64,000 nucleotides of DNA. It comes from an uncultured Candidatus Saccharibacteria bacterium (GTDB lineage: Bacteria > Patescibacteriota > Minisyncoccia > Phycocordibacterales > JAKFXT01). Position 1 is the first letter of the stretch. Each line of letters begins with the position of its first letter. The translations under genes were made by a program, and so were the position numbers. This document shows, in pieces, positions 25,604 to 40,900 of the stretch. The stretch is from assembly GCA_964385825.1 (NCBI GenBank), contig CAYLPX010000002.1:98876-162875 (forward strand), read 5' to 3'. Under the pieces are notes generated by a model that searched no databases, was not told the DNA's origin, and saw only the letters and a list, made by a program, of their open reading frames with translations.

Positions 25604-25880
25604 CTTGAGAAAAAACAGTGCCTGCGCACTGTTTTTTGCTACAAGTCCGAGGCGGAGCGATGTTTTTACAGTAGTAAAAACCGCGAGTCGTGGTCAAGGG
25701 ATTTTACGAGCGACGGCGAGTAAAATATTCGTGACGACGTAGCCTGACTATCAGAAAAGTACCCGCGACGGTAGTCGAGATCCCTGCTGTAAAATTGTGA
25801 GCCGGGGTCGCGAGATTTTTCTGTCAGGAAAAATACTTGTGACGACAAAAAACAGTGCCTGCGCACTGTTTTTTAATGAC
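25604..25880 (+). repeat. tRNA-flanking structured repeat, copy A
   Basis: It is bounded by two identical A6-CAGTGCCTGCGCACTG-T6 hairpins (25610-25637 and 25847-25874). It contains GAGCGACGGCGAGTAAAATATTCGTGAC, AAAAGTACCCGCGACGGTAGTCGAGAT and ATTGTGAGCCGGGGTCGCGAG, all shared with copies B-D. Confidence 0.6.
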
Positions 25881-25897
25881 TGCTTAATACTTTTTAA

Positions 25898-26303
25898 CTA
25901 AAGTGGCAAATCAAAGGCGTAGAGTCCTGGTCCAATGAAGAGGAAGGAGAGGGAAATAAAAAGGAGGAGGGTGTAGAAAGAGCGAGGGTGTGGAGACAGA
26001 GGTTTCTTAAGGCAGGAAAGGCAAATCATAAGGAACGAAAGCCCGGCACCAAGAATGGCCCCGATTTGTGTATAAAGGCCGACTAGAAAAGAAAGGCCAA
26101 TAATAAATTGGAGAGTGGCAAGAAGAATGAGGGTAAAGAGTGGGTGAAGGAAAGAAAGGCTGCGGATGTTAGAGAGAACCTGGGTACGTTCCTTGGTAAG
26201 AGCTCGGTAGCCGAGAGCGAGAAAACTAACTCCAATAGTGACTCGTAAAACGCTAATACCAATAAGCCCGTAGGCAAGTAGAGTTGGGAAGACGCTTAAC
26301 ATA
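25898..26303 (-). CDS. DoxX-like small polytopic membrane protein
   Basis: Four hydrophobic helices. The start was chosen at MLSVFPT. Confidence 0.3.
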
Positions 26304-26338
26304 CGGCATATTCTAGCACAGAGTACTCCTGTGCTATA

Positions 26339-26827
26339 GTGCCGGCTATGAAAAGAGGGACACATACACAGTTAGCCTTGGTAGACATACGCAGTGCTGA
26401 GAATGTGGGAGCTATATTCCGCACGGCAGATGCGCTCGGAGTGTCACATATATATCTAGTGGGCTACACACCGGACCCTATAGACCGTTTTGGGCGCGCT
26501 CGTAGTGATATTGCAAAGGCGGCGCTTGGGGCAGAGAAGACTGTTTTGTGGGAACATGTGAAGGATACGACCATTCTTTTTAAGTTACTTAAAAAGAGTG
26601 GATTCACAAGCGTAGCTATCGAGCAGGACAAGAAGGCCGTGGATTACAAAAAAGTTAAACTTACTGGTCCTACCTGTTTTCTGGTGGGAAATGAAGTTAC
26701 CGGACTTCCTAAAACAATTTTAAAAAGAGTAGATGTGATAGCTGAAATCCCCATGAGAGGGGAGAAGGAGTCATTTAATGTTTCAGTGGCTACTGGAATT
26801 GCACTAGCGAGGATATTAAATCTTTAG
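26339..26827 (+). CDS. SpoU/TrmH-family RNA 2'-O-methyltransferase
   Basis: The motifs are ENVGAIFRTADALGV and the SPOUT knot region VGNEVTGLP...NVSVATGIAL. Confidence 0.7.
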   Translation: MPAMKRGTHTQLALVDIRSAENVGAIFRTADALGVSHIYLVGYTPDPIDRFGRARSDIAKAALGAEKTVLWEHVKDTTILFKLLKKSGFTSVAIEQDKKAVDYKKVKLTGPTCFLVGNEVTGLPKTILKRVDVIAEIPMRGEKESFNVSVATGIALARILNL

Positions 26828-27348
26828 TAATAGTTTCTAAAAGATTCATTTTCAGGGAGGGCCAGATCAATAAATCTAAATGTAACACCAAGCTTTTTCA
26901 TTTCAGCTACTGGATCGGAAATGTACTCAACTGTAATTGGTTTGGTGGGCTTCTGTATAATCATTTCAAGATCACCCAATCCTTCTTTGTATATAAACTT
27001 ATCTTTATCAAAGTGGTATAAGTAGCCACCATTTTCATAGAGCTTCTCCAAACTTTCTTCCAGGTTATTGAGTCCGTGGATATAAACTATACCGTTATGG
27101 TCGTATAAACTAACTCCCATATTATAGTGAGCAGTTTTCCCATTAATTTCATGTGGTACTGATTTGTAAGTATAAGCTAGTGCGATCCATTTGTAAGGTG
27201 TGGCATGAAAAGATTCCTCGTTAAAAATAGTTACTTGTTCTCCCCCAACCGTTTTAAATCTTTTATTTTGTTTTGGTACTGCATGGTCCGAGTCAAATTT
27301 TGTGGGAGAGCCATGAAAAACCAGTTTTTCATGAGGTATTTTTTCCAT
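26824..27348 (-). CDS. hypothetical protein
   Basis: A 174 aa ORF with uniform composition and no motif recognised. Confidence 0.4.
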   Translation of the reverse strand: MEKIPHEKLVFHGSPTKFDSDHAVPKQNKRFKTVGGEQVTIFNEESFHATPYKWIALAYTYKSVPHEINGKTAHYNMGVSLYDHNGIVYIHGLNNLEESLEKLYENGGYLYHFDKDKFIYKEGLGDLEMIIQKPTKPITVEYISDPVAEMKKLGVTFRFIDLALPENESFRNYY

Positions 27349-27363
27349 AAAAGCTTTGGCGAG

Positions 27364-28269
27364 TTAATACGTTTTAAAATAAGCGGCGGTGTTGCCACTA
27401 AGGTCTAGGATTTTTACGAGCTCACGTTGGTACTGCCAGAGGCTTTCGGGTTGCTTGAGGTATATGCGCCATTCTGGCTTATAAAAGTCGGGATCAAGTT
27501 TGTGATTCTCGACGCAAGTATTGTAGTTAATTTTGCTGGTAACGTAAGCCGTACATTCTTGGCCCAAATCGTCCGGTATGTCATTAAGTGGCATGGTGCA
27601 TGAAGAAATTCCTTCTATGTAGTTGAGACATTGGTTGCGGCGGTTGGCAGGAAAGTTTGGAAGATCCTCGTCCCCTGGTCTTGGGCACTCATAGGGGAGT
27701 GGTGGATTAAAGGTGGCACTTTGATTGAAGTAGCCGGTACATTTGTTTACGCGAAATGAATACCCAACTGGAGAAGTACCAGAAGTAATGTACACAGTAT
27801 CTCCCGGTGAGACGTATACCGGATCGTCATAATTGTTACGAGCAAAATCAGGGCGATAGACAGCTCGCGGAATAGTTGTGCCATGTCCTGTTGCAGCGCT
27901 TTGTATACGCATGCCGGATAGAAGAGTGCGGTTTGGGGCGTTTGACGCAAGGCGGAGAACAACATACTCATCGCGTGGATTGTCGGTCCCTAGGCTACCC
28001 TGGTCTAGAGTTAGGTAATTGCTGAGCGATGATAATGGGCCTATTGCCGTTGATTCAGCCGTACTCCTTTTTAACTCACTAGTCTCGTTACTGATGCGCT
28101 GTACTTCACTACTGATGCCTTCCACAGTAGTTGGAGCTTTGTAGGAACCATCGGCGTTGCGGTTAGCGCTATGAGCTCCACCGTTATAGAGCCACATAAA
28201 AATAAGGATGCCGAAAAAAGCAAATATGAAACCATACCCACCGCCACTACTTGGTTTAACTTCTGCCAT
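27364..28269 (-). CDS. hypothetical secreted Cys-rich protein
   Basis: An N-terminal TM/signal sequence is followed by about 10 Cys in the mature part. Confidence 0.4.
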   Translation of the reverse strand: MAEVKPSSGGGYGFIFAFFGILIFMWLYNGGAHSANRNADGSYKAPTTVEGISSEVQRISNETSELKRSTAESTAIGPLSSLSNYLTLDQGSLGTDNPRDEYVVLRLASNAPNRTLLSGMRIQSAATGHGTTIPRAVYRPDFARNNYDDPVYVSPGDTVYITSGTSPVGYSFRVNKCTGYFNQSATFNPPLPYECPRPGDEDLPNFPANRRNQCLNYIEGISSCTMPLNDIPDDLGQECTAYVTSKINYNTCVENHKLDPDFYKPEWRIYLKQPESLWQYQRELVKILDLSGNTAAYFKTY

Positions 28270-28322
28270 GACACCATGATAGCAGAAATTACAAAATTAG
28301 ATTATTAGTAATTTAGGAAAGC

Positions 28323-29219
28323 TTACTTACGAAGGGGTTGGTGTAGTGAACAAAAATGCGCACTACGACCGCCAACAACTTTTCGTAAAATGATGCCTTT
28401 ACAACCACGACGCTCACAGGGTTTCCCAGTTTTACGGTAGGCATGGTGTTTGTTTTGGAACTTGCCTGGTTCGCCATAAATATTCCGATAGTCAGAAGTA
28501 GAGTCGCCACCAAAAGCTATGCCGCCGCGCAAAGTGGGCTTAATTGATTGAAAAAGTGCCTTGAGGTGAAGGGGGGAAATTTCAGAAACTCTCTGTTCGG
28601 GGTGAATGCCGGAGAGCCATAACACTTCATCTGAATAAATGTTACCAATGCCGGCAAGAATGGTTTGGTCCATGAGCACAGTTTTGATTTTACTTTTTGC
28701 CTTTTTAGCTAAACACTCATTGAAAACTTTGAATGTGAAAGTGGGGGAGAGTGGCTCGGGGCCTAGATGAGAGAGGTGGGGCGAGGTGGCGAGTTTTGAA
28801 GTTTCAATGAGCGCGAGCTTACCGAATTTGCGAGTATCACAGAATGCTAAATGCTTGCCATTTGAAAGTGAGAAGAGCACGTGAATGAAACGATTGTATG
28901 GGTCACGAAGTGCCTCATTCTTTTCGTGTTCATGGGGGACCCAGGTTTTGAGATGTTCCTTGTAGTAGCCGTAAAGTAAGTGACCTGTCATTTTCATATG
29001 TATAAGGAGGGTATGGTCACCTTCAAAGTGTATTAGTATGTTTTTTGCGCGACGTTCCACACGAATAATTTTTTTGTGAAGTATGGCTGCTTGAACAGCT
29101 TTGATACCAGTTCCACGAAACATTTTGGGCCAGTCGGTCCATAGCGAAATAAAAGAGAGTTTTGGCAGTACGCTCTGTAGCCCAGAGACGGTCGTCTGCA
29201 CTTCAGGGAGTTCAGGCAT
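28323..29219 (-). CDS. mutM: formamidopyrimidine-DNA glycosylase (Fpg/Nei family)
   Basis: The N-terminus is MPELPEV, with an H2TH region and a C-terminal zinc finger CERRGC...CSLHQ. Confidence 0.85.
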   Translation of the reverse strand: MPELPEVQTTVSGLQSVLPKLSFISLWTDWPKMFRGTGIKAVQAAILHKKIIRVERRAKNILIHFEGDHTLLIHMKMTGHLLYGYYKEHLKTWVPHEHEKNEALRDPYNRFIHVLFSLSNGKHLAFCDTRKFGKLALIETSKLATSPHLSHLGPEPLSPTFTFKVFNECLAKKAKSKIKTVLMDQTILAGIGNIYSDEVLWLSGIHPEQRVSEISPLHLKALFQSIKPTLRGGIAFGGDSTSDYRNIYGEPGKFQNKHHAYRKTGKPCERRGCKGIILRKVVGGRSAHFCSLHQPLRK

Positions 29220-29230
29220 AGTTGTAGGAG

Positions 29231-30499
29231 CTAGGGGGTAAGCAGCTTTTCCAGTTCTTCGCGTGCTATTTCAGCATCGCTCCAGGGGGTGCGCTTGTTG
29301 TTCGCTTCCATGATGTAAGGGTCGGTTCCCTTGCCGCTTATGAGTACGGTCGAACCAAGATTGGCGTGACGTAGGGCAGTGCGGATAGCTTCTCTTCTAT
29401 CCATGATGATTTCGGTTTTTTTATTGGTAATACCCGCTTTAATATCGGCAACAATTTTTTCTGGATTTTCATCATACGGATCTTCATTGGTGAGAATGAT
29501 CTCATCGCAGTATGAGCTGGCAATAGCACCCATGTCGTGGCGTTTACTTTTGTCGCGCCCGCCACCTGTGCCACCGAGCACACAGATACGACGCGTGCCG
29601 GCAAAGGCCTCATAGAGCTTTTTAAGCGAATCAGTAGTATGTGCATAGTCCACAACAACAGTAAAGTTTTGTCCCGCTTCTATTTTCTGTACACGACCGA
29701 GGGCACCTTTAAAGGATTCTATGGCGGCTACCGCAACTTCTTCTTTGATAGCAAGGGCGCTCGCTAGGGTTAAAGCAGAAAGTGCATTCATAACATTAAA
29801 CTCTCCGGGAAGGGTCGTATGCACAGGACGACCCCTCCATGAAAAGTATCCACCCGAATGCCCTAGTTCAAAAGGTTTAGCATCTTGAAGTTTGTATATA
29901 TGCTTTTCTGAGTATGGTAGGTTGGCAAAATATGAAAGCTCAGGGTCATCCCCGTTAAGTATGGCAATACTTTTCTGCTTTCTATTAAAAGCACATCGTT
30001 TAGCTATTTCTCTTTTGGCTGCACGATACTTTTCGTAGGAACCATGGCGTTCTATGTGCTCAGGAGAGAGGTTGGAAAGCACAAAGGCATCAAGGTAAAG
30101 GAAGCGATGGCGGTACTGCAGTACCGCTTCGCTACTTATTTCTATAACGGCATGCGTGCACCCTTTTTTAATCGCTTCACGCAAAAGGCGCTGCAAAAAG
30201 AAACGCCCAGGGGTCGTCATTTTGAATAAATTGCGTTCACTTTTCTCCCCAATTTTGAATTGAATAGTAGAAACCAGCGCGGCTTTGTGACCAGCGGCAC
30301 TTAGGAGGTGATGAATGTATTCACTAGTAGTAGTTTTACCTTTAGTTCCGGTTACTCCAATAACAATGAGTTCTTTGGAAGGGAAGCGGTAAAAAAAGGC
30401 TCCTAGTAAAGCGAGAAGGTAGTGATACGCAGGCTGGAAAAAGCGGAAAATAGGTTTCGGGATTATCTTTTCTAGAGTACGGAGTGTTGTTTCAAGCAT
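29231..30499 (-). CDS. murE: Mur ligase, probably MurE
   Basis: ATP-binding motif GVTGTKGKTTT and the Mur ligase middle and C-terminal domains are present. Confidence 0.6.
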   Translation of the reverse strand: MLETTLRTLEKIIPKPIFRFFQPAYHYLLALLGAFFYRFPSKELIVIGVTGTKGKTTTSEYIHHLLSAAGHKAALVSTIQFKIGEKSERNLFKMTTPGRFFLQRLLREAIKKGCTHAVIEISSEAVLQYRHRFLYLDAFVLSNLSPEHIERHGSYEKYRAAKREIAKRCAFNRKQKSIAILNGDDPELSYFANLPYSEKHIYKLQDAKPFELGHSGGYFSWRGRPVHTTLPGEFNVMNALSALTLASALAIKEEVAVAAIESFKGALGRVQKIEAGQNFTVVVDYAHTTDSLKKLYEAFAGTRRICVLGGTGGGRDKSKRHDMGAIASSYCDEIILTNEDPYDENPEKIVADIKAGITNKKTEIIMDRREAIRTALRHANLGSTVLISGKGTDPYIMEANNKRTPWSDAEIAREELEKLLTP

Positions 30500-30542
30500 A
30501 GGTTACATATTAGCTAAAGCGGAAGAAAAAGCTACGGAATCG

Positions 30543-31115
30543 TTAGCCTCGGCCTAATTGCTTTAAAGCTTCACGGATTATGGCTTCAGTGTCGGTAGTA
30601 GTGGTGTCTATGTGCTTTAGCGTTTCGCGTATGTCACGTTCGTTATATCCAAGGGACATCAGGGCAAGGAGGGCATCGGACTCTTCTTTGAGTGCGCGAC
30701 CAACACCCTCTTCTATAGAGCTTACTTTTTCACGAAGTTCTAGAACTATTTTCTCGGCTGTCTTTTTGCCAATACCAGAAACTTTAGTGAGATACCCTGC
30801 GTCCCCCGTAGTAATAGCTTGGCGGAGAGTTGGGACGGCAACCGCTGAAAGCACGGCAAGTGCTGAGCGTGGACCAATACCGGAAACAGTAATAAGGAGT
30901 TCAAAGAAAGAAAGTTCTTCTTTGCTGGCAAAGCCAAAGAGGTCTAGGGCATTTTCCCGTACAGAAAGGTAGGTAAAAAGCTCTAGAGTATCAGGTTCCC
31001 CATAGAGTTTTAAAGTTTCTTCGGTTACAAAAACCTTATAACCCACCCCACCCACAAGGAGGGTGAGGGCTTTGTCCGAAGTACTTATAATGGTGCCTGA
31101 AAGGTAGCCAATCAT
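30543..31115 (-). CDS. ruvA: Holliday junction DNA helicase RuvA
   Basis: The N-terminus is MIGYLSGTI followed by GVGYKV and the HhH motifs GIGPRSALAVL and VSGIGKKTAEKI. Confidence 0.85.
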   Translation of the reverse strand: MIGYLSGTIISTSDKALTLLVGGVGYKVFVTEETLKLYGEPDTLELFTYLSVRENALDLFGFASKEELSFFELLITVSGIGPRSALAVLSAVAVPTLRQAITTGDAGYLTKVSGIGKKTAEKIVLELREKVSSIEEGVGRALKEESDALLALMSLGYNERDIRETLKHIDTTTTDTEAIIREALKQLGRG

Positions 31116-31195
31116 CCCCCCCAGTATATCGCATTTTAGAAATAGGGCTCCCTGTATTGCTTTTTATGGGGGTTTTAGGTAATATCGCTCTACCT

Positions 31196-31459
31196 ATGGC
31201 AATAACTAAATCAGCAAAGCGGGCAATCGGAGTAGCGGCACGTCGCCGTGTTTTTAACCTTCGCCGCAAGGACGACCTTCGTACAACTATTAAGGAAGTG
31301 AAGAAGCTTGTACTTGCTGGCAAGAAGGATGAGGCTACTAAGGCACTTGATAAGGCATACAAAGCGCTCGATAAGTCTGCTAAGACTAAGCTTATAAAAA
31401 GGGGAACTGCAGATCGCAAAAAGAGCCGCCTTGCAAAGCAAATCGCAAAGATAAAATAA
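31196..31459 (+). CDS. rpsT: 30S ribosomal protein S20
   Basis: The protein begins MAITKSAKRAIGVAARRRVFN and is basic and helical. The listed ORF starts at an upstream Met, so the conserved start was chosen. Confidence 0.8.
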   Translation: MAITKSAKRAIGVAARRRVFNLRRKDDLRTTIKEVKKLVLAGKKDEATKALDKAYKALDKSAKTKLIKRGTADRKKSRLAKQIAKIK

Positions 31460-31461
31460 AA

Positions 31462-31495
31462 CAAAAAACACCCGAGAGGGTGTTTTTTGTTTTAG
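31462..31495 (+). terminator. rho-independent terminator
   Basis: AAAAAACACCC-GAGA-GGGTGTTTTTT. Confidence 0.6.
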
Positions 31496-31559
31496 GGGTG
31501 CTCCACGCTTCTAATTGAACCAGCATCGTCTCCTTCGCTCCCAATAGCTTTCTTGTAAG

Positions 31560-31631
31560 TGCTCTCGGCGGGAATCGAACCCACATCACTTCCTTCGGAG
31601 GGAAGTATCCTATCCATTGAACGACGAAAGC
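31560..31631 (-). tRNA. tRNA-Arg (anticodon CCG)
   Basis: Manual fold of the reverse complement: acceptor GCTTTCG/CGAGAGC, anticodon loop CTCCGAA, T-arm GTGGGTTCGATTCCCGC. Confidence 0.8.
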
Positions 31632-31916
31632 TTGGTGGGGCAGGGGTTAGTAGGAATCTCGACTACCGTCGCGGGTACTTTTCGACTTCATTCTTCGGCT
31701 GCCTTGAATTCAGTAACGAAAAGTCTTTCGATTCCTGCACGCAAGCAAAGCAGTTTGCTTGCTCTCGGAGCCCTTTCAGGTGTCACAGATAAATTACTCG
31801 CCGTCGCTCATAATTTTCCGCGACCCCGCCTCGCAAATTTGCTTGCTAGCAAATTATAGCTCCGGCCGGACTCGTAAGTAAAAAGAGGTGCGCAGGCACC
31901 TCTTTTTACTTACGAG
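31632..31916 (-). repeat. tRNA-flanking structured repeat, copy B (between two tRNA-Arg genes)
   Basis: A 21 bp-stem hairpin CTCGTAAGTAAAAAGAGGTGC-CTGC-GCACCTCTTTTTACTTACGAG (31871-31916) abuts the tRNA 3' end. It also contains TCCGGCCGGAGCTATAATTT, AAATTTGCGAGGCGGGGTCGCGGAAAATTA, GAGCGACGGCGAGTAATTTATCTGTGACAC and AAAAGTACCCGCGACGGTAGTCGAGATTCCT. Confidence 0.6.
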
Positions 31917-31988
31917 TCCCCTCGGCAGGAATCGAACCTGCATCGCAAGATCCGCAATCTTGCGTCCTATCCATTGAACGACGAGGGG
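31917..31988 (-). tRNA. tRNA-Arg (anticodon read as GCG; could be ACG-type)
   Basis: Manual fold: acceptor CCCCTCG/CGAGGGG, D-arm GTTCAATGGATAGGAC, anticodon arm CAAGA-TTGCGGA-TCTTG, T-arm GCAGGTTCGATTCCTGC. Confidence 0.7.
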
Positions 31989-32029
31989 ATAGTAAAGGAG
32001 TTATAGCAAAAAGTTATCTATTTTGCCAC

Positions 32030-32485
32030 TCATATCCCTAGCCAGTCAGCTAGGACATGCGCTAGGGGTTCGTGGTGGGGAACCTCCTTTAGTTTATGGA
32101 TGAGAATTTCTTTTATGTCCTCCCCCTCATATTCACGTATGGGAATAACCATAAGGGTTCCTAGAAACTTTTTTGGAGCAAGGATGAGCTTATCTTCATG
32201 TTGTTGTTTGTGTATAAAAAAGGAATCTAATTCTTCGTAGTGAAAAAATTCCTCGCCGACCCCAATACCCCTTTCGTTAATAACATAAAGAACTTGCTTA
32301 GGAATGCGAACGGCAAAAAGACCAACACTAAAGGCACCGAGTCCAATAATGACGGCTAGAAGTATGTTTCCAAAGTAGAGCGCTACCCCAGAACTTATGA
32401 GCGCAAGAAGGCCGAGGCCCCAAAACCAATCAACGGTTTTGGGTCGATGAGCGTATTCATATTCACTCCAACTAATCTCATGCAT
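32030..32485 (-). CDS. hypothetical membrane protein
   Basis: Two N-terminal TM helices and a soluble C-terminal domain. Confidence 0.4.
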   Translation of the reverse strand: MHEISWSEYEYAHRPKTVDWFWGLGLLALISSGVALYFGNILLAVIIGLGAFSVGLFAVRIPKQVLYVINERGIGVGEEFFHYEELDSFFIHKQQHEDKLILAPKKFLGTLMVIPIREYEGEDIKEILIHKLKEVPHHEPLAHVLADWLGI

Positions 32486-32574
32486 AAGAGTAGTTTAGCA
32501 TGAGGGGAAAGAAAATTTATTTAGAATAAGTACAAAGCGGAGGTGGTGAGATTTTTAATAACTAAGTCTTACAG

Positions 32575-32659
32575 CGGAGGCGGTGAGATTCGAACTCACG
32601 GTACCTTGCAGCACTCCTGTTTTCAAGACAGGTGCGATAGACCACTCTGCCACGCCTCC
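32575..32659 (-). tRNA. tRNA-Ser (anticodon UGA)
   Basis: Manual fold: acceptor GGAGGCG/CGCCTCC, anticodon loop CTTGAAA, long variable arm, T-arm GTGAGTTCGAATCTCAC. Confidence 0.8.
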
Positions 32660-32762
32660 GCTCTAATACTTAGTTTCTTTTAATGAACTTGTGTACCCAC
32701 AAACTTACACTAAAAACGGATTATTCTCAACCGCTTTCTTTTTTTAACTTATCACTATAAGC

Positions 32763-33155: not shown

Positions 33156-33161
33156 AAAAGT

Positions 33162-34694: not shown

Positions 34695-34706
34695 TATTTC
34701 TGATAT

Positions 34707-35234
34707 ATGTACAATTTACTACCAGATGAACAGAAAGATGCTATTAAAAGAGAGTATCATTTTCGCGTGGCCATCATAGCGTCGCGGTTCGTATTACTTG
34801 CTACTATAGTTGGCTTTGTATTTTTGATACCATCTTTTGTACTTCTTTTTACTAAGCGTTCAGAACTAACGGACCAGATAACAGCGAGTGAGCGAGTGCA
34901 GGCAGAAACAACGAAAGAGGTTTCAGTAGATAGTACCAAGCAGCTCAATGAAGAAGTTGAAATATTAAAAGGGGTTAATCTTGACGCGCACCCAGAAGAG
35001 CTTATTAAAAAAGTTTTCGACAGCAGACCCAAAAATATTCAAATAAGCAAAGCGGTCTATGGACTAGTTGGGACGAGTAGTTCTGTTTCTATAGAAGGGG
35101 TGGCTAATAGCATTGATGATCTTCTTGTATTTAAAAAGGTACTTCTCACTATTCCGCCCTTTAAGTCGGCAACTTTCCCAGTAGAGTTATTAACTAAGCG
35201 GAGTAATGTTTCATTTGTAATAACTGCTCAATAG
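34707..35234 (+). CDS. pilN: PilN-like bitopic membrane protein
   Basis: A single N-terminal TM helix and a coiled coil, in the position after pilM. Confidence 0.5.
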   Translation: MYNLLPDEQKDAIKREYHFRVAIIASRFVLLATIVGFVFLIPSFVLLFTKRSELTDQITASERVQAETTKEVSVDSTKQLNEEVEILKGVNLDAHPEELIKKVFDSRPKNIQISKAVYGLVGTSSSVSIEGVANSIDDLLVFKKVLLTIPPFKSATFPVELLTKRSNVSFVITAQ

Positions 35235-35244
35235 ATAAAGCTGT

Positions 35245-35787
35245 ATGCAACTTTTTGAACGAACAAAACGAGCTTTGATACTAAATAGTGTAATCCTATT
35301 GCTGTTTATTGGTGGTTTTTCTGGGGTGGTGTACTATTTCTTTTCTTTACATGATGAGGTTGCCGCTCTTGAAGCAAAAGTTGCGGAGGTGAAAAGTAAT
35401 GAGGAAGACATGGCAACTTTAAAGAAAAATCTGCAGGATGTTTCGGGTAGTAAGGATGCATTAGAATCACTTTTTGTAACAAGCGACAACGAAGCTGATT
35501 TTATAAAATCACTTGAAACGCTGGCTAGCTCTACTAATGTGGCACTTGATATAACCGCACTAAGGCACGAGGCGGGGCCGGCAAAATCTCGTTTTGAATA
35601 TGTAACTGTGCAGGGGAATACGGTGGGCAAACTTTCTGATGTGTATCGCTTTTTAAACTTACTCAGCCGTTTTCCCAAAGCTCTTGAAGTAAAGCAGTTG
35701 CAGCTTGAACTTATGCCAAGTGATGAGAAGAAAAAAACACATGAATGGCGAGGCAGCTTTAATGCAAAGGCACTTAAAATAAAATAG
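35245..35787 (+). CDS. pilO: PilO-like bitopic membrane protein
   Basis: A single TM helix, a coiled coil and a C-terminal domain, in the position after pilN. Confidence 0.45.
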   Translation: MQLFERTKRALILNSVILLLFIGGFSGVVYYFFSLHDEVAALEAKVAEVKSNEEDMATLKKNLQDVSGSKDALESLFVTSDNEADFIKSLETLASSTNVALDITALRHEAGPAKSRFEYVTVQGNTVGKLSDVYRFLNLLSRFPKALEVKQLQLELMPSDEKKKTHEWRGSFNAKALKIK

Positions 35788-35788
35788 T

Positions 35789-36121
35789 ATGGAGATGACA
35801 ATAGAAAAATTAAAAGCACTATTTAAAAAGGAGGGGGTTGTTAAGGAACGTAAGCCCTCCAGGAATCCATATCGAGATTGGATTATTATCTTCGTGTGTG
35901 GAGTAGTACTTTGCTTTTGTATGATGCTTGGGGCAGGGTATGTTTTTCTCGGAGTTAAGAGCGGAACACTTTTTGATGTTGCTGAACAAAGTAGTGCAAC
36001 GAAGACAAAAGATTTCAACGAAAAAAGTTTAATCCAAGTACTCAGTCTTTATAAAGCAAGAGCAGACGAGTATCAGGGAATAATGAGTTCTAAACCAGCA
36101 ATTGCCGATCCATCGCTCTAG
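35789..36121 (+). CDS. small membrane protein (possible PilP-like)
   Basis: A 110 aa protein with one TM helix, translationally coupled to the pilO-like gene. Confidence 0.3.
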   Translation: MEMTIEKLKALFKKEGVVKERKPSRNPYRDWIIIFVCGVVLCFCMMLGAGYVFLGVKSGTLFDVAEQSSATKTKDFNEKSLIQVLSLYKARADEYQGIMSSKPAIADPSL

Positions 36122-36138
36122 TGGTAGCCTAAGATCGA

Positions 36139-36210
36139 CTCCCCGTAGTTCAATGGATAGAACAGGAGACTTCTAAGCTTCTGATCGTGGTTCGATTCCA
36201 CGCGGGGGGA
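36139..36210 (+). tRNA. tRNA-Arg (anticodon UCU)
   Basis: Manual fold: acceptor CTCCCCG/CGGGGGG, D-arm GTTCAATGGATAGAAC, anticodon loop CTTCTAA, T-arm CGTGGTTCGATTCCACG. Confidence 0.8.
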
Positions 36211-36363
36211 GAGAGCAGAGCGAACGAGACCCGCGTGGAATCGAACGCGAAAGGGGTCGGGAAAACTGTAGTTTTCCCGTGGAGGAAGGCAAGGAGCGAA
36301 GCGAGTGTCGGAAAACCGTGGGTTTCCGAGGAGTGAGATAGCGAAGCGTCCACGCGGGGGGAC
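36211..36363 (+). repeat. att-like scar at the tRNA-Arg 3' end
   Basis: The tRNA 3' end CACGCGGGGGGA (36200-36211) recurs as a direct repeat at 36351-36362. An inverted copy of the T-arm/acceptor, CCCGCGTGGAATCGAAC, sits at 36229-36245. Hairpins GGGAAAACTGTAGTTTTCCC and CGGAAAACCGTGGGTTTCCG lie in between. Confidence 0.55.
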
Positions 36364-36590
36364 TTTATAGCAAAAAACAGTGCACAAGCACTGTTTTTTG
36401 CTATAAAGTCCGGCCGGAGCTATATTTTCTCAGTCGAGAAAATTGCGAGGCGGGGTCGCGGAAATTTTGTTTTGACGAAAACAAAATTATCTGTGACACA
36501 GAAACTGGCCGGCCGGAACGAGTGGCGACGAGCTTTTATCCGTGACAGAGCGTGATGAAAATATTAAACGCCCCCGAAGGGGCGTCAGTT
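36364..36590 (+). repeat. tRNA-flanking structured repeat, copy C
   Basis: A 22 bp-stem hairpin CTTTATAGCAAAAAACAGTGC-ACAA-GCACTGTTTTTTGCTATAAAG (36363-36408) is followed by TCCGGCCGGAGCTATATTTT, AAAATTGCGAGGCGGGGTCGCGGAAATTTT and ATTATCTGTGACACAG. Confidence 0.6.
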
Positions 36591-36797
36591 GAAGTATACC
36601 CACCAAAGTAGGCACCACGCGAGGCTAAGTGGAACGATTGCGATACCACTTGCCCAGCAAAAGAACACAAGACCCGTCCCCCAAAGGGAACCAATGACCC
36701 CCGCTATGAGTCCGAAGAAAATTGCGAGAACCAGGATGCCGAGGAGTGGTCCCCAGAACTCCCCCCTCTCCTTAAAATAACGCATTACTCTTGCCAT
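36585..36797 (-). CDS. foreign high-GC 70 aa two-TM micro-protein
   Basis: MARVMRYFKERGEFWGPLLGILVLAIFFGLIAGVIGSLWGTGLVFFCWASGIAIVPLSLAWCLLWWVYFN. A GGGGATGGGG RBS lies upstream, and a GC-rich terminator ACGCCCC-CGAA-GGGGCGT overlaps the stop. Confidence 0.35.
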   Translation of the reverse strand: MARVMRYFKERGEFWGPLLGILVLAIFFGLIAGVIGSLWGTGLVFFCWASGIAIVPLSLAWCLLWWVYFN

Positions 36798-36837
36798 AAC
36801 CCCATCCCCCAATTGGTTTAAGAAAGCTGACAGTGTG

Positions 36838-37158
36838 TCACTGCTCGATGGTGCGGAAGCGTGGCATACCCCTCTTGATAAAGAAGGTTTGGAACTCCCC
36901 CCTTTTGTCCACTCTTCGCCAGCCGTAGTGCGTTTCCTCGAGAATTCCTGCAGCAACCATTGCCCGGAGTCGCTTGAGGAGAGAGGGATTCCGTGCGGTT
37001 GAAACCCCGATTTCATTTGGCAAAACCCACGACCTCCTCTCACCTTTTTTTGGCCAGTCGTGTGGCCGCCAGGGTGGGCGCAGATCACCGGCTTTGTTGA
37101 TGGCTTCCACGATTTTCTTCGTGGGGGAACGGGCAGTAACGGGAGGGTTTATCCTCAT
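36838..37158 (-). CDS. foreign high-GC basic 106 aa protein (possible DNA-binding)
   Basis: An AGGAG RBS lies 6 nt before the ATG. The protein is Arg/Lys/Trp-rich (WRPHDWPKKGERRSW...LKRLRAMVAAGIL) and sits in a GC-rich island. Confidence 0.4.
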   Translation of the reverse strand: MRINPPVTARSPTKKIVEAINKAGDLRPPWRPHDWPKKGERRSWVLPNEIGVSTARNPSLLKRLRAMVAAGILEETHYGWRRVDKRGEFQTFFIKRGMPRFRTIEQ

Positions 37159-37205
37159 GATCTACTCCTCTATTTACTAGACTGTGAATCAGGATACACT
37201 CGATT

Positions 37206-37991
37206 ATGGCTAAGTCAAACCATAAACAAATTGCTATAATTACCTCTATGTCAAAAGCAACGCGTACGCTCTCATTTCTTGCGGGACTAGTACTCCTTTG
37301 CCTTCTTTTGGGGATTACGTTCGGGCGGGAAAAAATAATGGAAGGACTAGTGTCTTTAGCACTTTTGTATCTTTCGGTGCTTGTGTGGCGAACTAAGCAA
37401 AAGTTATGGCTCGCTTTTTTCATCACTATGCTTTTGGTACTTAACCCATTCTTCCCACCCCTCACACTTTCATTATTTTCAATTAAGTTACTGTACCTTG
37501 CAGTACTTCTCGGTGGCGGTAAGTTTTTCTATGAGTACTACAACGGTTATCGTAAAGGTGCACAATTTGAAAATTTCGTTTGCTCACTGTTCAAGCCAGA
37601 AAGTTGGGTAGTAGAAGATAGAACTAAGGATTGGTCACATAAGTTGAGTCGCCCTGTTGAATCAGATCAAAATCCTGATCTTATTCTACGAAATAAGAAA
37701 ACAGATAAACGGGTTGCTATAGAGTGTAAGTTTAGAACAAGAGTTTGGAGTGATGGGGGCGTGACCGGAATAGTGTGGCCAAAAGAATATGCCGACCGAT
37801 ACAAGAAATTCGCTGAGGAAAAAAAGATTCCGGTGTATATCGCTTTTGGCCTCGGAGGGAACCCGAAAAGCCCCAATGAGCTTTTCTTAGTGCCTCTTGA
37901 AAGGGTTGCTGCTTATGAAGGGAAAATAATTCCTGCTCAATATTTGCGCGAATTTAAAAAGAATCCGCAATTTGAAGTTAGTTTGGGGTAG
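37206..37991 (+). CDS. membrane-anchored PD-(D/E)xK nuclease-like protein (Mrr_cat/NERD-like C-terminal domain)
   Basis: Four N-terminal TM helices are followed by a C-terminal domain with GAQFENFV, NPDLIL and AIECKFR, which together form a D...ExK signature. Confidence 0.5.
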   Translation: MAKSNHKQIAIITSMSKATRTLSFLAGLVLLCLLLGITFGREKIMEGLVSLALLYLSVLVWRTKQKLWLAFFITMLLVLNPFFPPLTLSLFSIKLLYLAVLLGGGKFFYEYYNGYRKGAQFENFVCSLFKPESWVVEDRTKDWSHKLSRPVESDQNPDLILRNKKTDKRVAIECKFRTRVWSDGGVTGIVWPKEYADRYKKFAEEKKIPVYIAFGLGGNPKSPNELFLVPLERVAAYEGKIIPAQYLREFKKNPQFEVSLG

Positions 37992-37999
37992 TCTCGGCC

Positions 38000-38205
38000 A
38001 AGAACACTTTTCTTTTTGTGGTCACGAATATTTTACTCGCCGGCGCTTATAAAATCTCGCCTCACTTTGTGGCCACAGATAATTCATTTGCCGTCGCAAA
38101 TGAATTTCCGCGGCCCCGGCTCGCAATCGCTCGTACTCTCGCGATATAGCTACGCCCCCCACACAATCAAAAAACCTGCCGCAGGGCAGGTATTTTTGTA
38201 TTGTG
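38000..38205 (-). repeat. tRNA-flanking structured repeat, copy D (3' of tRNA-Val)
   Basis: In tRNA orientation: a CACACAATACAAAAATACCTGCC-CTGC-GGCAGGTTTTTTGATTGTGTG hairpin abuts the tRNA 3' end. It is followed by ATTGCGAGCCGGGGCCGCGGAAATTC, ATTATCTGTGGCCACA and GCGCCGGCGAGTAAAATATTCGTGAC. Confidence 0.6.
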
Positions 38206-38278
38206 TGGGCGATACAGGACTCGAACCTGTAACCTACTCAGTGTAAATGAGTTGCTCTACCAATTGAGCTAATCGCCC
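38206..38278 (-). tRNA. tRNA-Val (anticodon UAC)
   Basis: Manual fold: acceptor GGGCGAT/ATCGCCC, D-arm GCTCAATTGGTAGAGC, anticodon loop TTTACAC, T-arm ACAGGTTCGAGTCCTGT. Confidence 0.8.
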
Positions 38279-38415
38279 CTACAAAACGGAAAACCGTCTG
38301 TTATCTGGAGAGCATAGTGTATTTTAGGCATTCCGGCAAGGGAGGTTACCTTTCGTGTGGGGTTTTGTTCTAGTAGTATCTACTCTGCGGTAGATTGTTG
38401 TAGAATAGTCAGATT

Positions 38416-38700
38416 ATGAAGGATGAAGCCGGATACGAGTGGACTATAGAAGGTAGGGTGCAGTATGTGATGTTTCGAGACTTCACTGAGAGAGTTGCAC
38501 GTAAGTTAGGGCTTCTTGGGTATGTGAGAAATAATGAAAATGGGACAGTGACAGTTGTTGCAGAGGGGGAAAGAGAGAAGTTAGCAAAACTTCGCAGTTA
38601 CGTAGAGAAGGGTCCACTATTTGCCCATGTGACGGCAGTACGTGAGAGGGAAATCCCACCAAAAGGGGAATACAAAAATTTTGAAATCAGATACAACTAA
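38416..38700 (+). CDS. acyP: acylphosphatase
   Basis: GRVQYVMFRDFT and the GYVRNNENGTVTVVAEGE pattern are present. Confidence 0.8.
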   Translation: MKDEAGYEWTIEGRVQYVMFRDFTERVARKLGLLGYVRNNENGTVTVVAEGEREKLAKLRSYVEKGPLFAHVTAVREREIPPKGEYKNFEIRYN

Positions 38701-39367
38701 AAATATACCAGAGTGCATTGGCATCATTATGGACGGCAATCGTCGTTTTGCTAAGGCGCGTGGGTGGCCAACTAGCATGGGTCACAAAGCGGGCTACGAA
38801 GTCTTCAAGGAATTTTTAGAGTGGGCAGGAGAAGCTGGGGTTAAAGAAGTAGTAGCTTACTGTTTTTCAACCGAGAACTGGAAGCGGGCAAAAGAAGAAG
38901 TAACGTTCCTTATGGAATTGTTACTTGTAGGCCTCAGTGAATTGCAGAAGGATTTTAAAAATAGTCAGTTTCATTTTGTTGGCGATCTTTCACAGTTTGA
39001 TCCCAAGCTACGGGCGCAGATGGAGAAAATCGAAGTAGAAACTGCAAAGGCTACTGGCCCCAAGGTATACCTCGCGCTTTCTTATGGTGGCCGTAGTGAA
39101 ATACTAGCTGCAACAAAAAAGTTGGTGGCAAGTGGCAAGGAAATAAACGAAGAAAATTTCAATACAGCTTTGTATACAAGCGGAATGAAAGATCCTGATC
39201 TCATTATTCGCACAGGCGGGGAAAAAAGGCTGTCTAACTTTTTGCCATGGCAGAGCGTGTACAGTGAACTCTTTTTTATTGATACACTTTGGCCTGCCTT
39301 TACTAAAGAGGAATTTGAAGCCATACTCGGAGCATATGACAGACGCGAAAGACGCTTTGGGGTATAA
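38642..39367 (+). CDS. uppS: isoprenyl transferase (undecaprenyl diphosphate synthase)
   Basis: IGIIMDGNRRFAK, ENWKR and RTGGEKRLSNFLPWQ are present. The true start may be the in-frame TTG at 38681. Confidence 0.8.
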   Translation: MRGKSHQKGNTKILKSDTTKNIPECIGIIMDGNRRFAKARGWPTSMGHKAGYEVFKEFLEWAGEAGVKEVVAYCFSTENWKRAKEEVTFLMELLLVGLSELQKDFKNSQFHFVGDLSQFDPKLRAQMEKIEVETAKATGPKVYLALSYGGRSEILAATKKLVASGKEINEENFNTALYTSGMKDPDLIIRTGGEKRLSNFLPWQSVYSELFFIDTLWPAFTKEEFEAILGAYDRRERRFGV

Positions 39368-40085
39368 CAACCCACTTATACCCACCATAGTGTATGAAGA
39401 TGATGACATACTCGCTGTAAATAAGCCTGCGGGGCTTATGGTGCATGCTGATGGGAAAAATACCGAGGACACCCTTTGTGAATGGCTTCTTTCAAAGTAC
39501 CCCAAAATAAAAGGGGTGGGGGAGCCGCTTCTTCTTGCTGACGGACGCAGTATTGGGCGACCAGGTATAGTACACCGTATTGATCGTTGGACGTCGGGGA
39601 TTCTTTTGGTGGCAAAGACAGCTAAGGCTCATGCACACCTTAAAGAACAGTTCCAAGAGCGAGTGATAAAAAAGGAATATAACACTTTTGTTTTCGGTCT
39701 TGTACGTGATGATTTCGGTACTATTAATTTGCCTATTGGTAGAAGTAAGGGAGATTTTCGCCAGTACACAGCTCCTCCAAATGCACGGGGGGAAATGCGC
39801 GAAGCCGAGACCTACTATGAAGTAATCACAAGAGGAAGGGAGCATACTTTTCTTAAGGTACAACCCAAAACAGGACGAACTCACCAGATCCGCGTACACC
39901 TTAAGGCTATTGGTTATCCAGTTGTGTGCGATCGGGTCTATGCACTTAATCGGGGCACGGCTCTTGGCTTTGATCGGCTAGCACTTCATGCGCGGAGTAT
40001 TACTTTTACTGATATGGGAGGGGAGGAAAAGACAGTAGAAGCCCCACTTCCTGAGGATTTTGAAAAAGCCTTAAAACTGCTCTAG
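39336..40085 (+). CDS. RluA-family pseudouridine synthase
   Basis: ILAVNKPAGLMVH and the catalytic-Asp motif HRIDRWTSGILLVAKT are present. The start was chosen at the internal Met after the uppS stop. Confidence 0.75.
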   Translation: MTDAKDALGYNNPLIPTIVYEDDDILAVNKPAGLMVHADGKNTEDTLCEWLLSKYPKIKGVGEPLLLADGRSIGRPGIVHRIDRWTSGILLVAKTAKAHAHLKEQFQERVIKKEYNTFVFGLVRDDFGTINLPIGRSKGDFRQYTAPPNARGEMREAETYYEVITRGREHTFLKVQPKTGRTHQIRVHLKAIGYPVVCDRVYALNRGTALGFDRLALHARSITFTDMGGEEKTVEAPLPEDFEKALKLL

Positions 40086-40101
40086 GGGTGCGTTCTATAA
40101 T

Positions 40102-40554
40102 TTGCCTGCCTTGCCCCAATATGGTAAGGTGTCCCTCATGACTAAGGTAATGTCCCCAGTAGACATAAAGAGCCGCGAAACGCTGGATCTCCGAGCGGGA
40201 GATACTGTGCGTGTAGAGCAAAAGATTGAGGAAAAGGGTAAAACCCGCCTCCAGTCTTTTGAGGGTCTTGTGCTTGCAGTAAAGCACGGCAAAACAGCCG
40301 GTTCTACTTTCACTGTTCGTAAGGTGGCAAGTGGAGTTGGGGTTGAAAAGGTTTTTCCTCTCTACTCTCCTTCTATAGATTCTATTAATATCGTCCGCCG
40401 CTCTAAGGTGCGCAAGAGTAAGCTCTACTATATCCGTGAAAAGGTTTCTCGTGAGATTCGCCGACAGATGCGTAATCTCCGTACGGTGAAAGCAGTAGCA
40501 GAAGACACTACTCCAGAGGCTCCAACTACTGAAGAAGCAGCAGTTACAGAATAA
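40102..40554 (+). CDS. rplS: 50S ribosomal protein L19
   Basis: The sequence GDTVRVEQKIEEKGKTRLQSFEGLVLAVKHGKTAGSTFTVRKV is typical of L19. Confidence 0.85.
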   Translation: MPALPQYGKVSLMTKVMSPVDIKSRETLDLRAGDTVRVEQKIEEKGKTRLQSFEGLVLAVKHGKTAGSTFTVRKVASGVGVEKVFPLYSPSIDSINIVRRSKVRKSKLYYIREKVSREIRRQMRNLRTVKAVAEDTTPEAPTTEEAAVTE

Positions 40555-40580
40555 AAAACTCGCGGAAGCGAGTTTTTTGT
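40551..40580 (+). terminator. rho-independent terminator
   Basis: AAAAAACTCGC-GGAA-GCGAGTTTTTT. Confidence 0.6.
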
Positions 40581-40628
40581 TTCTATGGTTGAAAAAGACC
40601 CCGTTCTCCGTTATAGTGCAACGTACTT

Positions 40629-40710
40629 GCCCAGGTGGAGAAATTGGTAGACTTACTACCTTGAGGTGGTAGCGCCGCGAGGCATGGGGGTTCGAGTCCC
40701 CCCCTGGGCA
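40629..40710 (+). tRNA. tRNA-Leu (anticodon GAG)
   Basis: Manual fold: acceptor GCCCAGG/CCTGGGC, anticodon arm CTACC-TTGAGGT-GGTAG, long variable arm, T-arm GGGGGTTCGAGTCCCCC. Confidence 0.75.
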
Positions 40711-40900
40711 CAACGAGCGGAGTGAGTTGGTGACAAGGAGTACGGTGCCTGCGCACCGTACGTGGGGGACGAGAAAACCTTGAGTATATCGGAGCGAGCG
40801 TCTGCGCGAAGTGAGATACGAAAGGTGTACAGAAATTGTAAATTTCGAGTCCTTTGAGCGTTGGAACATATCTGTGACCGAGTCCTTACATTTTATTTTA
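40711..40900 (+). repeat. tRNA-flanking structured region, copy E (more diverged)
   Basis: The hairpin GTACGGTGC-CTGC-GCACCGTAC has the same GCCTGCGC core as copies A and B. GAGTGAGATACGAAAGG and ATATCTGTGACCGAG resemble motifs in copy C. Confidence 0.4.

Follow-up and report, generated by a model that had tools for sequence, protein, structure and literature searches.

Structured, protein-less modules behind tRNA genes of Patescibacteria as candidate insertion elements

Elements that integrate at the 3' ends of transfer RNA (tRNA) genes are already known, and the islands and prophages that do so by means of a tyrosine integrase reportedly use three sublocations within these genes, i.e., the anticodon loop, the T-loop, and the 3' end. 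Other described systems resemble parts of what is reported here. Integron cassettes end in folded attC sites, whose core consists of the R'' (RYYYAAC) and R' (GTTRRRY) sites, with a repeat of 6 nt, and the tyrT-distal repeats of Escherichia coli, termed rtT, are 178-bp units, each with the final 19 nt of tRNA-Tyr, which share a transcript with the tRNA. The closest paper that we found deals with patescibacterial tRNAs whose anticodon loops contain group I introns (PMC13011429). The subject of this report is a family of structured, non-coding elements that follow tRNA genes in a 64,000-nt stretch of DNA, referred to as the window, from an uncultured Candidatus Saccharibacteria bacterium (GenBank assembly GCA_964385825.1, contig CAYLPX010000002.1, positions 98,876 to 162,875).

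The window is a segment of a bacterial chromosome that encodes PolA, a Mur ligase, RuvA, Fpg, UppS, and PilM, and homologues of its PilM assign it to Patescibacteria, near Paceibacteria/Nomurabacteria-like organisms. ARAGORN finds eight tRNA genes in it, all between 25.5 and 42.4 kb. A first-pass annotation, made by a model from the letters alone, had proposed that a family of repeats follows five of them, and this family is real: the tRNAs for Lys, Arg(GCG), Arg(UCU), Val, and Leu, whose elements are called copies A to E, are all present with their trailing elements, and the repeats lie far beyond chance, as illustrated by inverted-repeat pairs of 39, 35, and 54 nt (at 90%, 94%, and 78%, respectively) and by the 22-mer TTGCGAGSCGGGGYCGCGGAAA, with three occurrences in the window versus 0.00 expected. 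Behind the first four tRNAs the order of the pieces is the same: a long hairpin (H0), a linker ending in GGCCGGAGCTATA, an 8-bp hairpin with the loop AGYA, the block TTGCGAGSCGGGGYCGCGG, an 11-bp hairpin with the loop GACG, and the tail ATCTGTGAC. The portion from linker to tail, H0 excluded, is termed the S core; it is 89 nt long and is complete behind these four of the eight tRNAs, with scores of 85–90 bits under our covariance model R1. The Leu copy, which had been counted as the same element, shares the surrounding frame and lacks the S core.

We give about an even chance to the reading that the copies are small, protein-less, non-autonomous insertion modules with a functional RNA core, widespread in Patescibacteria, which enter genes by a mechanism that we infer. 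Each repeat of the window is one copy of the module or a stack of partly decayed copies. The module occupies the 3' part of tRNA or transfer-messenger RNA (tmRNA) genes, and occasionally the 3' end of a protein gene, and restores the gene in doing so. In tRNA sense it has five parts: a tRNA 3' end by which the live gene is made complete; a hairpin whose CUGC loop is conserved and which in many copies resembles a terminator; a stretch antisense to either the T-loop and T-stem of the live tRNA (about 12 nt, up to 18) or its last 5 nt or so; a cargo, most often the S core; and the old 3' end of the tRNA, displaced as a direct repeat. The antisense stretch can pair with the start of the displaced repeat and in this way close the S core into a three-way junction.

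The linkage to tRNA genes and the precision of the junctions speak for this reading. Model R1 gives 144 matches in 96 loci, and among 129 full-length copies, 101 of the 119 that are assessable are found within 450 nt (median 50) downstream of a tRNA or tmRNA and share its strand. Their tRNA hosts cover 18 amino-acid specificities, plus tmRNA, and several seemingly orphan copies turn out to lie downstream of tmRNA genes. The displaced repeat starts right after model position 88/89, and its junction with the tRNA sequence is of two types, both defined to the nucleotide. Type ii repeats the tRNA from C56 of the T-loop (U55|C56) for up to 27 nt, sometimes beyond the end of the gene, and type i repeats it from position 72 (71|72; CAC.. 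or GAC..), two nt before the discriminator; the target repeats at the junctions measure 3–36 nt. The antisense stretch sits upstream of the core. In type ii it typically comprises 12 nt against T54–N65, and up to at least 18 nt with an extra stretch against the acceptor strand, and in type i it comprises about 5 nt complementary to the tRNA end. Over 35 type ii copies, 10.3 of 12 antisense positions agree with the live tRNA, the initial 10 nt of the displaced repeat, i.e., those able to pair with the antisense, are 86% conserved, and the other 9 nt are bimodal, either near perfect or decayed, with a mean of 58%. Perfect repeats of the tRNA 3' end close many inserts, among them those behind tRNA-Ser (TTCGAATCTCACCCCATCCGC, 21/21 nt) and tRNA-Arg(GCG) (GATTCCTACCGAGGGCAC) of locus L004 and behind tRNA-Val of L008 (GAGTCCCTCAGGGCGCAC, 18/18 nt), and tandem arrays occur.

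The modules share with tRNA- and tmRNA-integrating islands their targets (the T-loop and the extreme 3' end), the replacement 3' end, and the displaced direct repeat with the gene restored. They differ from islands in their length, put at 150–300 nt for the modules and 150–400 nt for the elements, in being non-coding, with no integrase or other genes inside, and in having a covarying, RNA-like core at the junction and a built-in antisense of the target. The earlier statement that there is neither a real open reading frame (ORF) nor an adjacent transposase is correct for the window. With rtT, the modules have in common tandem non-coding units directly behind a tRNA, each ending in a copy of the tRNA 3' end, whereas there is no sequence or model match between them, and rtT belongs to one enterobacterial operon while the modules occur on many tRNA types and in many lineages. 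We know of no antisense stretch or three-way-junction core in rtT. The tRNA group I introns (PMC13011429) likewise insert into tRNA genes of this phylum on an RNA basis, and most of them lack a homing endonuclease, but they sit in the anticodon loop and must splice, whereas the modules leave the tRNA complete upstream, have a core of only 89 nt, and give no Intron_gpI match. Integration at tRNA 3' ends is already known, and the structured RNA family is new.

The same module also interrupts a protein gene. In locus L012 (3655–3893), an S module with a 36-nt flanking repeat lies inside the 3' end of a 738-aa ORF that reads as topoisomerase I (topA-like), going by its cysteine-rich C-terminus rather than by a domain search. 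The upstream copy of the repeat continues into a complete C-terminus, a stop codon, and a hairpin, and the displaced downstream copy can still be read as the former C-terminus with its own stop; the two differ by synonymous and conservative changes (KTIPERCSNKTCPNHNPHKKGK versus KTIPERCSNKSCANHNPHKREKK, each running to the stop). At least six other genomes have the flanking sequences of L012, those listed being L018, L088, L102, L112, and L128, and two loci, L026 and L027, share its upstream flank only. Since the 3' end of the target is replaced by a diverged allele, with identity confined to the vicinity of the junction, this arrangement is what site-specific integration would give and is hard to obtain as a local duplication.

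Repeats of this kind might instead be scars, namely attachment-site arms left over from deleted tyrosine-integrase islands or prophages, with an S core that has no function. Such scars would explain why the tRNA 3'-end repeats stand at what are said to be the classical integrase sublocations, and the cargo-less remnants behind the tRNA-Ser and tRNA-Arg(CCG) of the window look the part. Yet well over 100 copies, drawn from many lineages, have the same covarying 89-nt core right at the junction, no integrase is found nearby, and IMG/VR, phage records, and plasmid records give no match, all of which makes inert scars quite improbable.

The S core itself is, on the evidence of the alignment, a well-supported candidate for a structured RNA motif. 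The alignment comprises 85 copies from other genomes over 89 columns; the structure was proposed from the sequences, and its pairs were counted against shuffles and against slid partners. Two hairpin domains are seen. The base of the first is a 3-bp helix, in which the three bases before G-N-AGC of the linker pair with the last G of CGAG and the next two bases, and its interior has a G/A-rich internal loop, four more pairs with a two-base bulge, and the first hairpin. Three unpaired G's separate the domains, and in the second a 7-bp helix of G-UCGCGG with CYGUGAC encloses the second hairpin. Paired cells amount to 91.4%, versus 72.0 ± 0.5% in shuffles and 29–42% with slid partners, and compensatory cells number 555, versus 152 and 66–117, respectively. 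The compensatory stem changes claimed at first sight are thus borne out, with 25 of 32 pairs changing on both sides (21.0 ± 1.3 in shuffles; 13–20 with slid partners). Pair 5-41, for instance, occurs as CG 38, GC 32, AU 7, and UA 4 times, pair 47-87 as UA 70 and CG 10, and pair 52-82 as AU 44 and GC 39, whereas pair 49-85 is G-U in 85 of 85 copies. Some 20 positions outside the pairs do not vary at all among many named patescibacterial groups. The model is also recovered by single-sequence folding (z = -8.7 and z = -11.9), and type ii units fold in a tRNA-like manner with an acceptor-like stem (z = -8.7). Of the three explanations offered at the outset, that of a tRNA-linked small RNA keeps its structural side, in the form of strong covariation and strand-specific wobble pairs.

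The fold also has a strand. With the two conserved wobble pairs excluded, the non-Watson-Crick cells are G-T 52, A-C 11 (binomial p = 1.7e-7), G-A 201, and other 17. Mismatches are almost solely G-U and tandem G-A, where the opposite strand would give A-C and pyrimidine-pyrimidine clashes; therefore, the fold is read on the tRNA-sense strand. Every element of the window is co-oriented and co-linear with its tRNA. The blocks that had been said to recur in both orientations reflect only the strand of the tRNA. The elements keep the tRNA orientation on both DNA strands within a region of constant GC-skew sign, which makes a transcript a simpler reading than a replication-linked single strand.

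These counts bear directly on the possibility that the effect operates at the level of DNA only, the elements being REP/BIME-type palindromes or terminators grown by template switching, whose arms are complementary without any function as RNA. Consistent with it, the stems are almost perfectly Watson-Crick, whole hairpins seem to have been swapped between copies, and the first hairpin reaches into the constrained tRNA end, as the growth of a palindrome predicts. Against it stand the strand-specific bias just described (52 G-T versus 11 A-C, 201 G-A, and an invariant G-U), the covariation of long-range helices that enclose other hairpins (5-41 with four Watson-Crick types, 47-87, and 52-82), the invariant unpaired positions, and the orientation by tRNA and not by replication, so that we judge a pure DNA effect to be improbable.

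Miniature inverted-repeat transposable elements (MITEs) and REP/BIME elements are, like the modules, short, non-coding, multi-copy, hairpin-rich, and intergenic. The modules, however, are confined to gene 3' ends with nucleotide-precise junctions and have no fixed terminal inverted repeats, short (2–10 bp) target-site duplication, or GTAG/CGTC tag; their only inverted pair, antisense versus repeat, consists of local tRNA sequence and differs at every locus, and their repeats reach 27–36 nt. Among the initial explanations, a MITE-like element that targets tRNA 3' ends came closest: the targeting is seen in the precise junctions, displaced target copies, patchiness, and stacking or tandem arrangement, and the MITE-like termini are absent. 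Integron cassettes with attC sites and the folded strands of CTX type integrated by XerCD resemble the modules in having a structured element at the 3' end of a small, promoter-less unit without an enzyme gene, and in a stem whose base pairs an internal stretch with target-side sequence. The module core nevertheless lacks R''/R' sites in its consensus (tail AUYYGUGAC), is conserved in sequence too, has a repeat of 19–36 nt, targets tRNA genes rather than attI, attC, or dif, and has an orientation that points to RNA rather than to a replication-linked single strand; no integron integrase was found among the neighbours examined. As for ordinary per-gene terminators, which the first hairpin resembles in copy D (by terminator scan) and visibly in copies A–C, the modules go beyond them in that the CUGC loop and the 89-nt core are conserved outside the window across many named patescibacterial groups.

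A structured scaffold beside a target-complementary stretch at the very edge of inserted DNA also recalls guide RNAs, and the elements had been suggested to be orphaned remnants of an IS200/IS605-type guide RNA. Read more broadly, this would make them scaffolds left from TnpB/IscB omega RNAs or from the bridge (seek) RNAs of IS110/IS1111 elements (PMC11208160), with which they share a structured RNA at the edge of the element and a short stretch complementary to the target. The modules differ in having no attached recombinase or nuclease gene. Bridge RNAs have two internal loops with guides to target and donor; in the modules, one target-complementary stretch lies 5' of the core, whose own internal loops are invariant and not programmable. 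The junctions at 55|56 or 71|72 with repeats of 3–36 nt do not resemble IS200/IS605 insertion, where the element lands 3' of a tetra- or pentanucleotide of fixed sequence and the target is not duplicated. We know of no IS200/IS605, IS110/IS1111, or TnpB/IscB element with a replacement copy of the target 3' end.

Database searches and neighbouring genes point the same way. Only tRNAs reach the Rfam 15 gathering threshold in the window, and only tRNA and tmRNA do so in 18 further loci, so the check for a known family came back negative. At E up to 5 over 25400–41100, no family, HEARO and IS605-orfB included, overlaps the S core, and the non-tRNA rows are all sub-threshold (e.g., MIR839 across the copy B hairpin, 23.6 vs 200 bits). 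No description of this element was found in Rfam 15 or in a full-text literature search. ORFs within 2.5 kb of the 129 copies were clustered, and no TnpA, TnpB, IscB-like, or DEDD recombinase gene recurs among them; the recurrent neighbours are housekeeping families that reflect tRNA synteny (LepA, L19, RbfA, RelA/SpoT, ParB, and SpoU). The sole transposase seen, at L126, belongs to a secondary insertion of the IS3 family. An orphaned guide scaffold is accordingly highly improbable, and DNA palindromes, inert scars, and IS200/IS605 or IS110 remnants each fail at least one direct test.

Regarding the mechanism of the insertion modules, entry would take place by site-specific recombination, as for tRNA-targeting islands and integron cassettes, with an enzyme whose gene lies at some other place in the genome. 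Read-through from the tRNA would transcribe the S core, which would be the working RNA of the element and act as a scaffold for the enzyme, and the antisense stretch would supply the match to the target. A more far-reaching version, which we hold to be unlikely, makes the S core the RNA part of a new RNA-directed insertion system, either as a scaffold that programs a trans-encoded recombinase via the antisense, similar to bridge RNAs except that element and enzyme gene are uncoupled, or as a ribozyme that joins itself to the tRNA 3' fragment. The antisense would then be a re-writable guide to the T-arm of any tRNA in both variants. Known self-cleaving ribozymes (hammerhead, twister, twister-sister, pistol, hatchet, and HDV-like) give no Rfam match at E up to 5, and the junction strands (about 4, 3, and 1 nt) do not fit the hammerhead core in our own reading of that core. 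Still bolder would be the idea that the displaced tRNA 3' fragments provide replacement pieces for tRNAs that toxins have cleaved in the T-loop or acceptor stem.

The features of the copies in the window are listed here with the evidence for each.

25532..25604, plus strand: tRNA-Lys(UUU), host of copy A (ARAGORN; Rfam tRNA, 74.9 bits).
25601..25648, plus strand: H0 of copy A, CTGC loop, outer pairs GGAC/GTCC from the last 4 nt of the tRNA (sequence; repeat family D2, inverted pair I14).
25648..25736, plus strand: full S core of copy A (R1, 85.1 bits, E = 3e-19).
25754..25789, plus strand: W-type 3' block of copy A, AAAAGTACCCGCGACGGTAG..., ending in GATCCCTGCTG, a displaced copy of tRNA-Lys 25587–25597 (inverted pair I4, 94% with 31649–31683).
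25771..25844, plus strand: partial S core of copy A, second domain only (R1, 24.9 bits).
25844..25874, plus strand: second H0 copy of copy A, 97% identical (direct repeat D2), probably the displaced original terminator.
31916..31988, minus strand: tRNA-Arg(GCG), host of copy B (ARAGORN; Rfam).
31868..31919, minus strand: H0 of copy B, 24-bp perfect arms, CTGC loop, tRNA end included (inverted pair I19, 100%).
31781..31869, minus strand: full S core of copy B (R1, 90.0 bits).
31632..31780, minus strand: W-type module of copy B, extending up to tRNA-Arg(CCG), with GCAAGC-AAACTGCTTT-GCTTGC, antisense T-arm GCAGGAATCGAA, and pseudo-T-arm block AAAAGTACCCGCGACGGTAGTCGAGATTCC (sequence; W5 pattern match 31726–31755; orthologous W in L001).
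36139..36210, plus strand: tRNA-Arg(UCU), host of copy C (ARAGORN; Rfam).
36211..36362, plus strand: third cargo type of copy C, a 139-nt insert with antisense T-arm CCCGCGTGGAATCGAAC at 36230–36246, plus a 13-nt closing repeat (sequence; comparison with L001).
36355..36416, plus strand: H0 of copy C, 29-nt arms, ACAA loop (inverted pair I8; fold z = -11.9).
36410..36498, plus strand: full S core of copy C (R1, 88.2 bits).
36520..36548, plus strand: extra second-domain fragment of copy C, GAGTGGCGACGAGCTTTTATCCGTGACAG, equal to the hairpin of the L001 ortholog (sequence).
38205..38278, minus strand: tRNA-Val(UAC), host of copy D (ARAGORN; Rfam).
38155..38209, minus strand: H0 of copy D, CTGC loop, outer pairs CCCAC/GTGGG with the tRNA end (sequence; terminator scan, terminator-like both ways).
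38071..38159, minus strand: full S core of copy D (R1, 85.6 bits).
38012..38060, minus strand: partial S core of copy D, second domain, tail GTGACCAC (R1 match 38024–38060, 19.9 bits; repeat D1, inverted pair I3).
40629..40711, plus strand: tRNA-Leu(GAG), host of copy E (ARAGORN; Rfam).
40712..40890, plus strand: frame of copy E without S core (sequence; W3 pattern; tail match).

No other R1 match above 15 bits exists anywhere in the window. The first hairpin is long because its outermost pairs take in the last 3–5 nt of the tRNA itself, as GGAC/GTCC behind Lys and both Arg or CCCAC/GTGGG behind Val; its loop is CTGC, or ACAA in copy C. The second cargo type, W, follows S in copy B and is present as a fragment in copy A. 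It contains the hairpin and the antisense of the cognate T-arm listed above for Arg, and a block, AAAAGTACCCGCGACGGTAGTCGAGATYCC, that ends in the T-loop and stem sequence of the cognate tRNA (GATCCCTGCTG behind Lys, GATTCC behind Arg). Copy C had been placed from 36364 onward; it actually starts at 36211, with the 139-nt insert lying between two copies of the tRNA end CCACGCGGGGGGA (36198–36210 and 36350–36362, 13/13 nt). In the S core of copy D, a T-to-C change in GGGGCCG is matched by an A-to-G change in the tail GTGGCC (pair 47-87). Copy E consists of a CTGC hairpin (40740–40761), the antisense T-arm-like GTGGGGGACGAGAAAAC, a hairpin with a TGTAA loop (40827–40849), and a degenerate tail with the T-loop repeat ATATCTGTGAC|CGAGTCC (40868–40885).

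Syntenic loci were fetched via PilM homologues, and six of them (PilM 58–84% identical) were compared in detail. The same family is present behind the same and other tRNAs, and its module content differs. In L001, W takes the place of S behind tRNA-Arg(GCG), another W stands between tRNA-Val and an older, decayed S, and the 139-nt insert behind tRNA-Arg(UCU) is absent; in L010, a piece of the third cargo type lies downstream of S, not upstream. Such differences in content and order would result from new modules arriving at the end of the live tRNA and displacing the older ones outward.

The family reaches far beyond these relatives. A degenerate S-core pattern finds at least 119 stretches in species-representative genomes (loci L011–L129 were fetched), where about 17 chance matches would be expected by our own rough estimate (36 bits of information). 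Among the matches, the 80 record titles listed are nearly all labelled Patescibacteria, with labels including Paceibacterota, Nomura-, Kaiser-, Taylor-, Lloyd-, Moranii-, Vogel-, and Yonath-bacteria, Minisyncoccia, and metagenome-assembled genomes (MAGs) labelled Saccharibacteria. Three contigs of Elusimicrobia-labelled MAGs (L017, L038, and L065) have S cores of 78–99 bits behind tRNA-Arg genes, which reflect either real spread outside Patescibacteria or mis-binned contigs. Two pattern matches, L076 and L119, are attributed to chance, as R1 does not confirm them. An exact scan of the species-representative genomes with the 22-mer gave no match, the genome of the window evidently lying outside this set.

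This distribution is wide and at the same time patchy. In an unbiased sample of 80 loci, picked through PilM and not through S, R1 finds 31 matches in 20 loci, 26 of these matches following a tRNA, and S occupies 25 of 164 tRNAs (15%); nhmmer finds 13 of 164, with 0 of 41 for tRNA-Ser and 5 of 49 for tRNA-Arg(UCU). The module is therefore dispensable for any given tRNA.

The main rival explanation sees in the elements a host-serving RNA made from the 3' trailer of the tRNA and not a mobile unit. Such an RNA would act either in cis, with the tRNA precursor as its object (e.g., by helping it fold, in 3' processing, or in removing read-through transcripts), or as a stable small RNA, and the repeats would be old duplications kept for pairing. 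Several observations speak for it: the fold is kept in copies diverged to saturation and without recent bursts, the antisense follows the live tRNA even where the downstream repeat has decayed, the pairing-capable start of the repeat is better kept (86%) than the rest (58%), the orientation follows tRNA transcription on both DNA strands, and type ii units adopt the tRNA-like fold with an acceptor-like stem. It has difficulty, however, with the low occupancy, orthologous tRNAs being mostly without the module, with the interruption of topA-like genes, where the same module swaps the coding 3' end for a diverged allele, and with stacked or tandem copies whose order differs between relatives. We see a trailer RNA as a real possibility, albeit a minority one.

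Some results weigh against insertion modules more directly. Neither an excised circle nor a clean pair of empty and filled sites between near-identical strains was found, L001, L002, and L003 being identical and giving no population-level signal of gain or loss. No recombinase, transposase, or nuclease recurs within 2.5 kb of the 129 copies, and the inserting enzyme is therefore purely inferred. In copies with a decayed repeat, the antisense still fits the live tRNA and the core is intact, which could indicate a host-level function in cis. S-core identity is about 69% within one genome, the same as between unrelated genomes, and clustering the copies by genome or tRNA type gives no signal, all classes being about 69% identical; this divergence without recent bursts fits long residence under selection as well as it fits mobility. 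Finally, whole hairpins appear to have been exchanged: the second hairpin of the L001-Lys copy equals that of window copy C at 27/27 nt, and the rest of it is orthologous to window copy A, so part of the covariation may stem from module exchange and not from stepwise compensation. The insertion and host-function readings may both hold, in that an inserted element may be retained for its function.

The genomes of Patescibacteria are tiny, and yet some spend several hundred bases behind many tRNA genes on this module. If it is mobile, a unit without genes uses the classical integration sites of tRNA genes while the host gene is kept intact, and, given its built-in antisense, integration might be directed by a guide although no enzyme gene is attached. 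If its service is to the host, it adds a new layer to the biology of tRNA transcripts in a phylum where RNA-processing proteins are few. In both cases it accounts for many unannotated intergenic stretches and tRNA-end fragments in MAGs, and covariance model R1 is ready for annotating the modules.

Several minor features accompany the copies. The short motif CGAAGUGA(G) recurs in the loop between the acceptor strand of the tRNA and the antisense copy of that strand, as another conserved loop of the frame; it occurs in spacers of L020, L085, L090, L092, L105, and L110 and in the window at 36329–36346 and 40811–40828. Sigma-70-like promoter matches span the H0 3' arm and the start of the S core in copy B (31853–31882, minus strand, TTTACT-18-TATAAT) and copy C (36398–36426, plus strand, TTGCTA-17-TATATT). 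We do not claim a promoter as a general feature of the module: the -10-like TATAAT or TATATT is limited to the TATA/TTG subfamily of the core, which is a minority, and the region shows no excess of promoter-like sites. A kissing interaction between the loops CUGC and AGCA was rejected by eye: the window copies do not covary, A and D pairing CTGC with AGTA. One further repeat match, D18 at 35568–35597, falls within a coding region and is due to chance.

Other tRNAs of the window bear traces as well. The tRNA-Arg(CCG) gene is followed immediately by the 3' half of an older tRNA-Arg(CCG) allele (31480–31558, minus strand), in which the stretch CGAAGGAGACGATGCTGGTTCAATT equals the L001 gene at 25/25 nt; everything in the live gene from its anticodon loop onward is a replacement, with neither S nor W cargo. 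A short displaced 3' end of tRNA-Ser lies 14–38 nt behind its gene with no cargo between, both in the window (AAATCTCACCACCTCCGC; 32537–32556, minus strand) and in L006 and L010, and the L006 copy has the acceptor sequence of the L004/L009 allele and not that of the live gene.

Among the relatives, homing-endonuclease-like ORFs (HNH, NUMOD4/HNH_3, and LAGLIDADG-type) stand beside tRNAs in L004 (8629–9117), L006 (8536–9024 and 16764–17705), and L008 (8154–8840), and it seems that selfish DNA of this group generally lands in the flanks of tRNAs. The IS3-family element of L126 (1540–2905; OrfA and DDE OrfB, inverted ends TGTACCCC.../...GGGGTACG) lies between a tRNA-Leu and its S module; having its own inverted ends, it is not part of the module. 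In one metagenome relative, L154, ARAGORN reports as Pyl a tRNA with the anticodon CUA (8569–8641), which may be a suppressor tRNA.

Elsewhere in the window, the GC skew flips sign near 8 kb (window 1–12000) and G+C falls to 0.33–0.37 at 8–12 kb, which may mark a replication origin or terminus, or a foreign segment. Two perfect palindromes that are unrelated to the tRNA modules, at 56401–56456 (26 bp, 4-nt loop) and 53984–54029 (22 bp, 2-nt loop), are probably bidirectional terminators.

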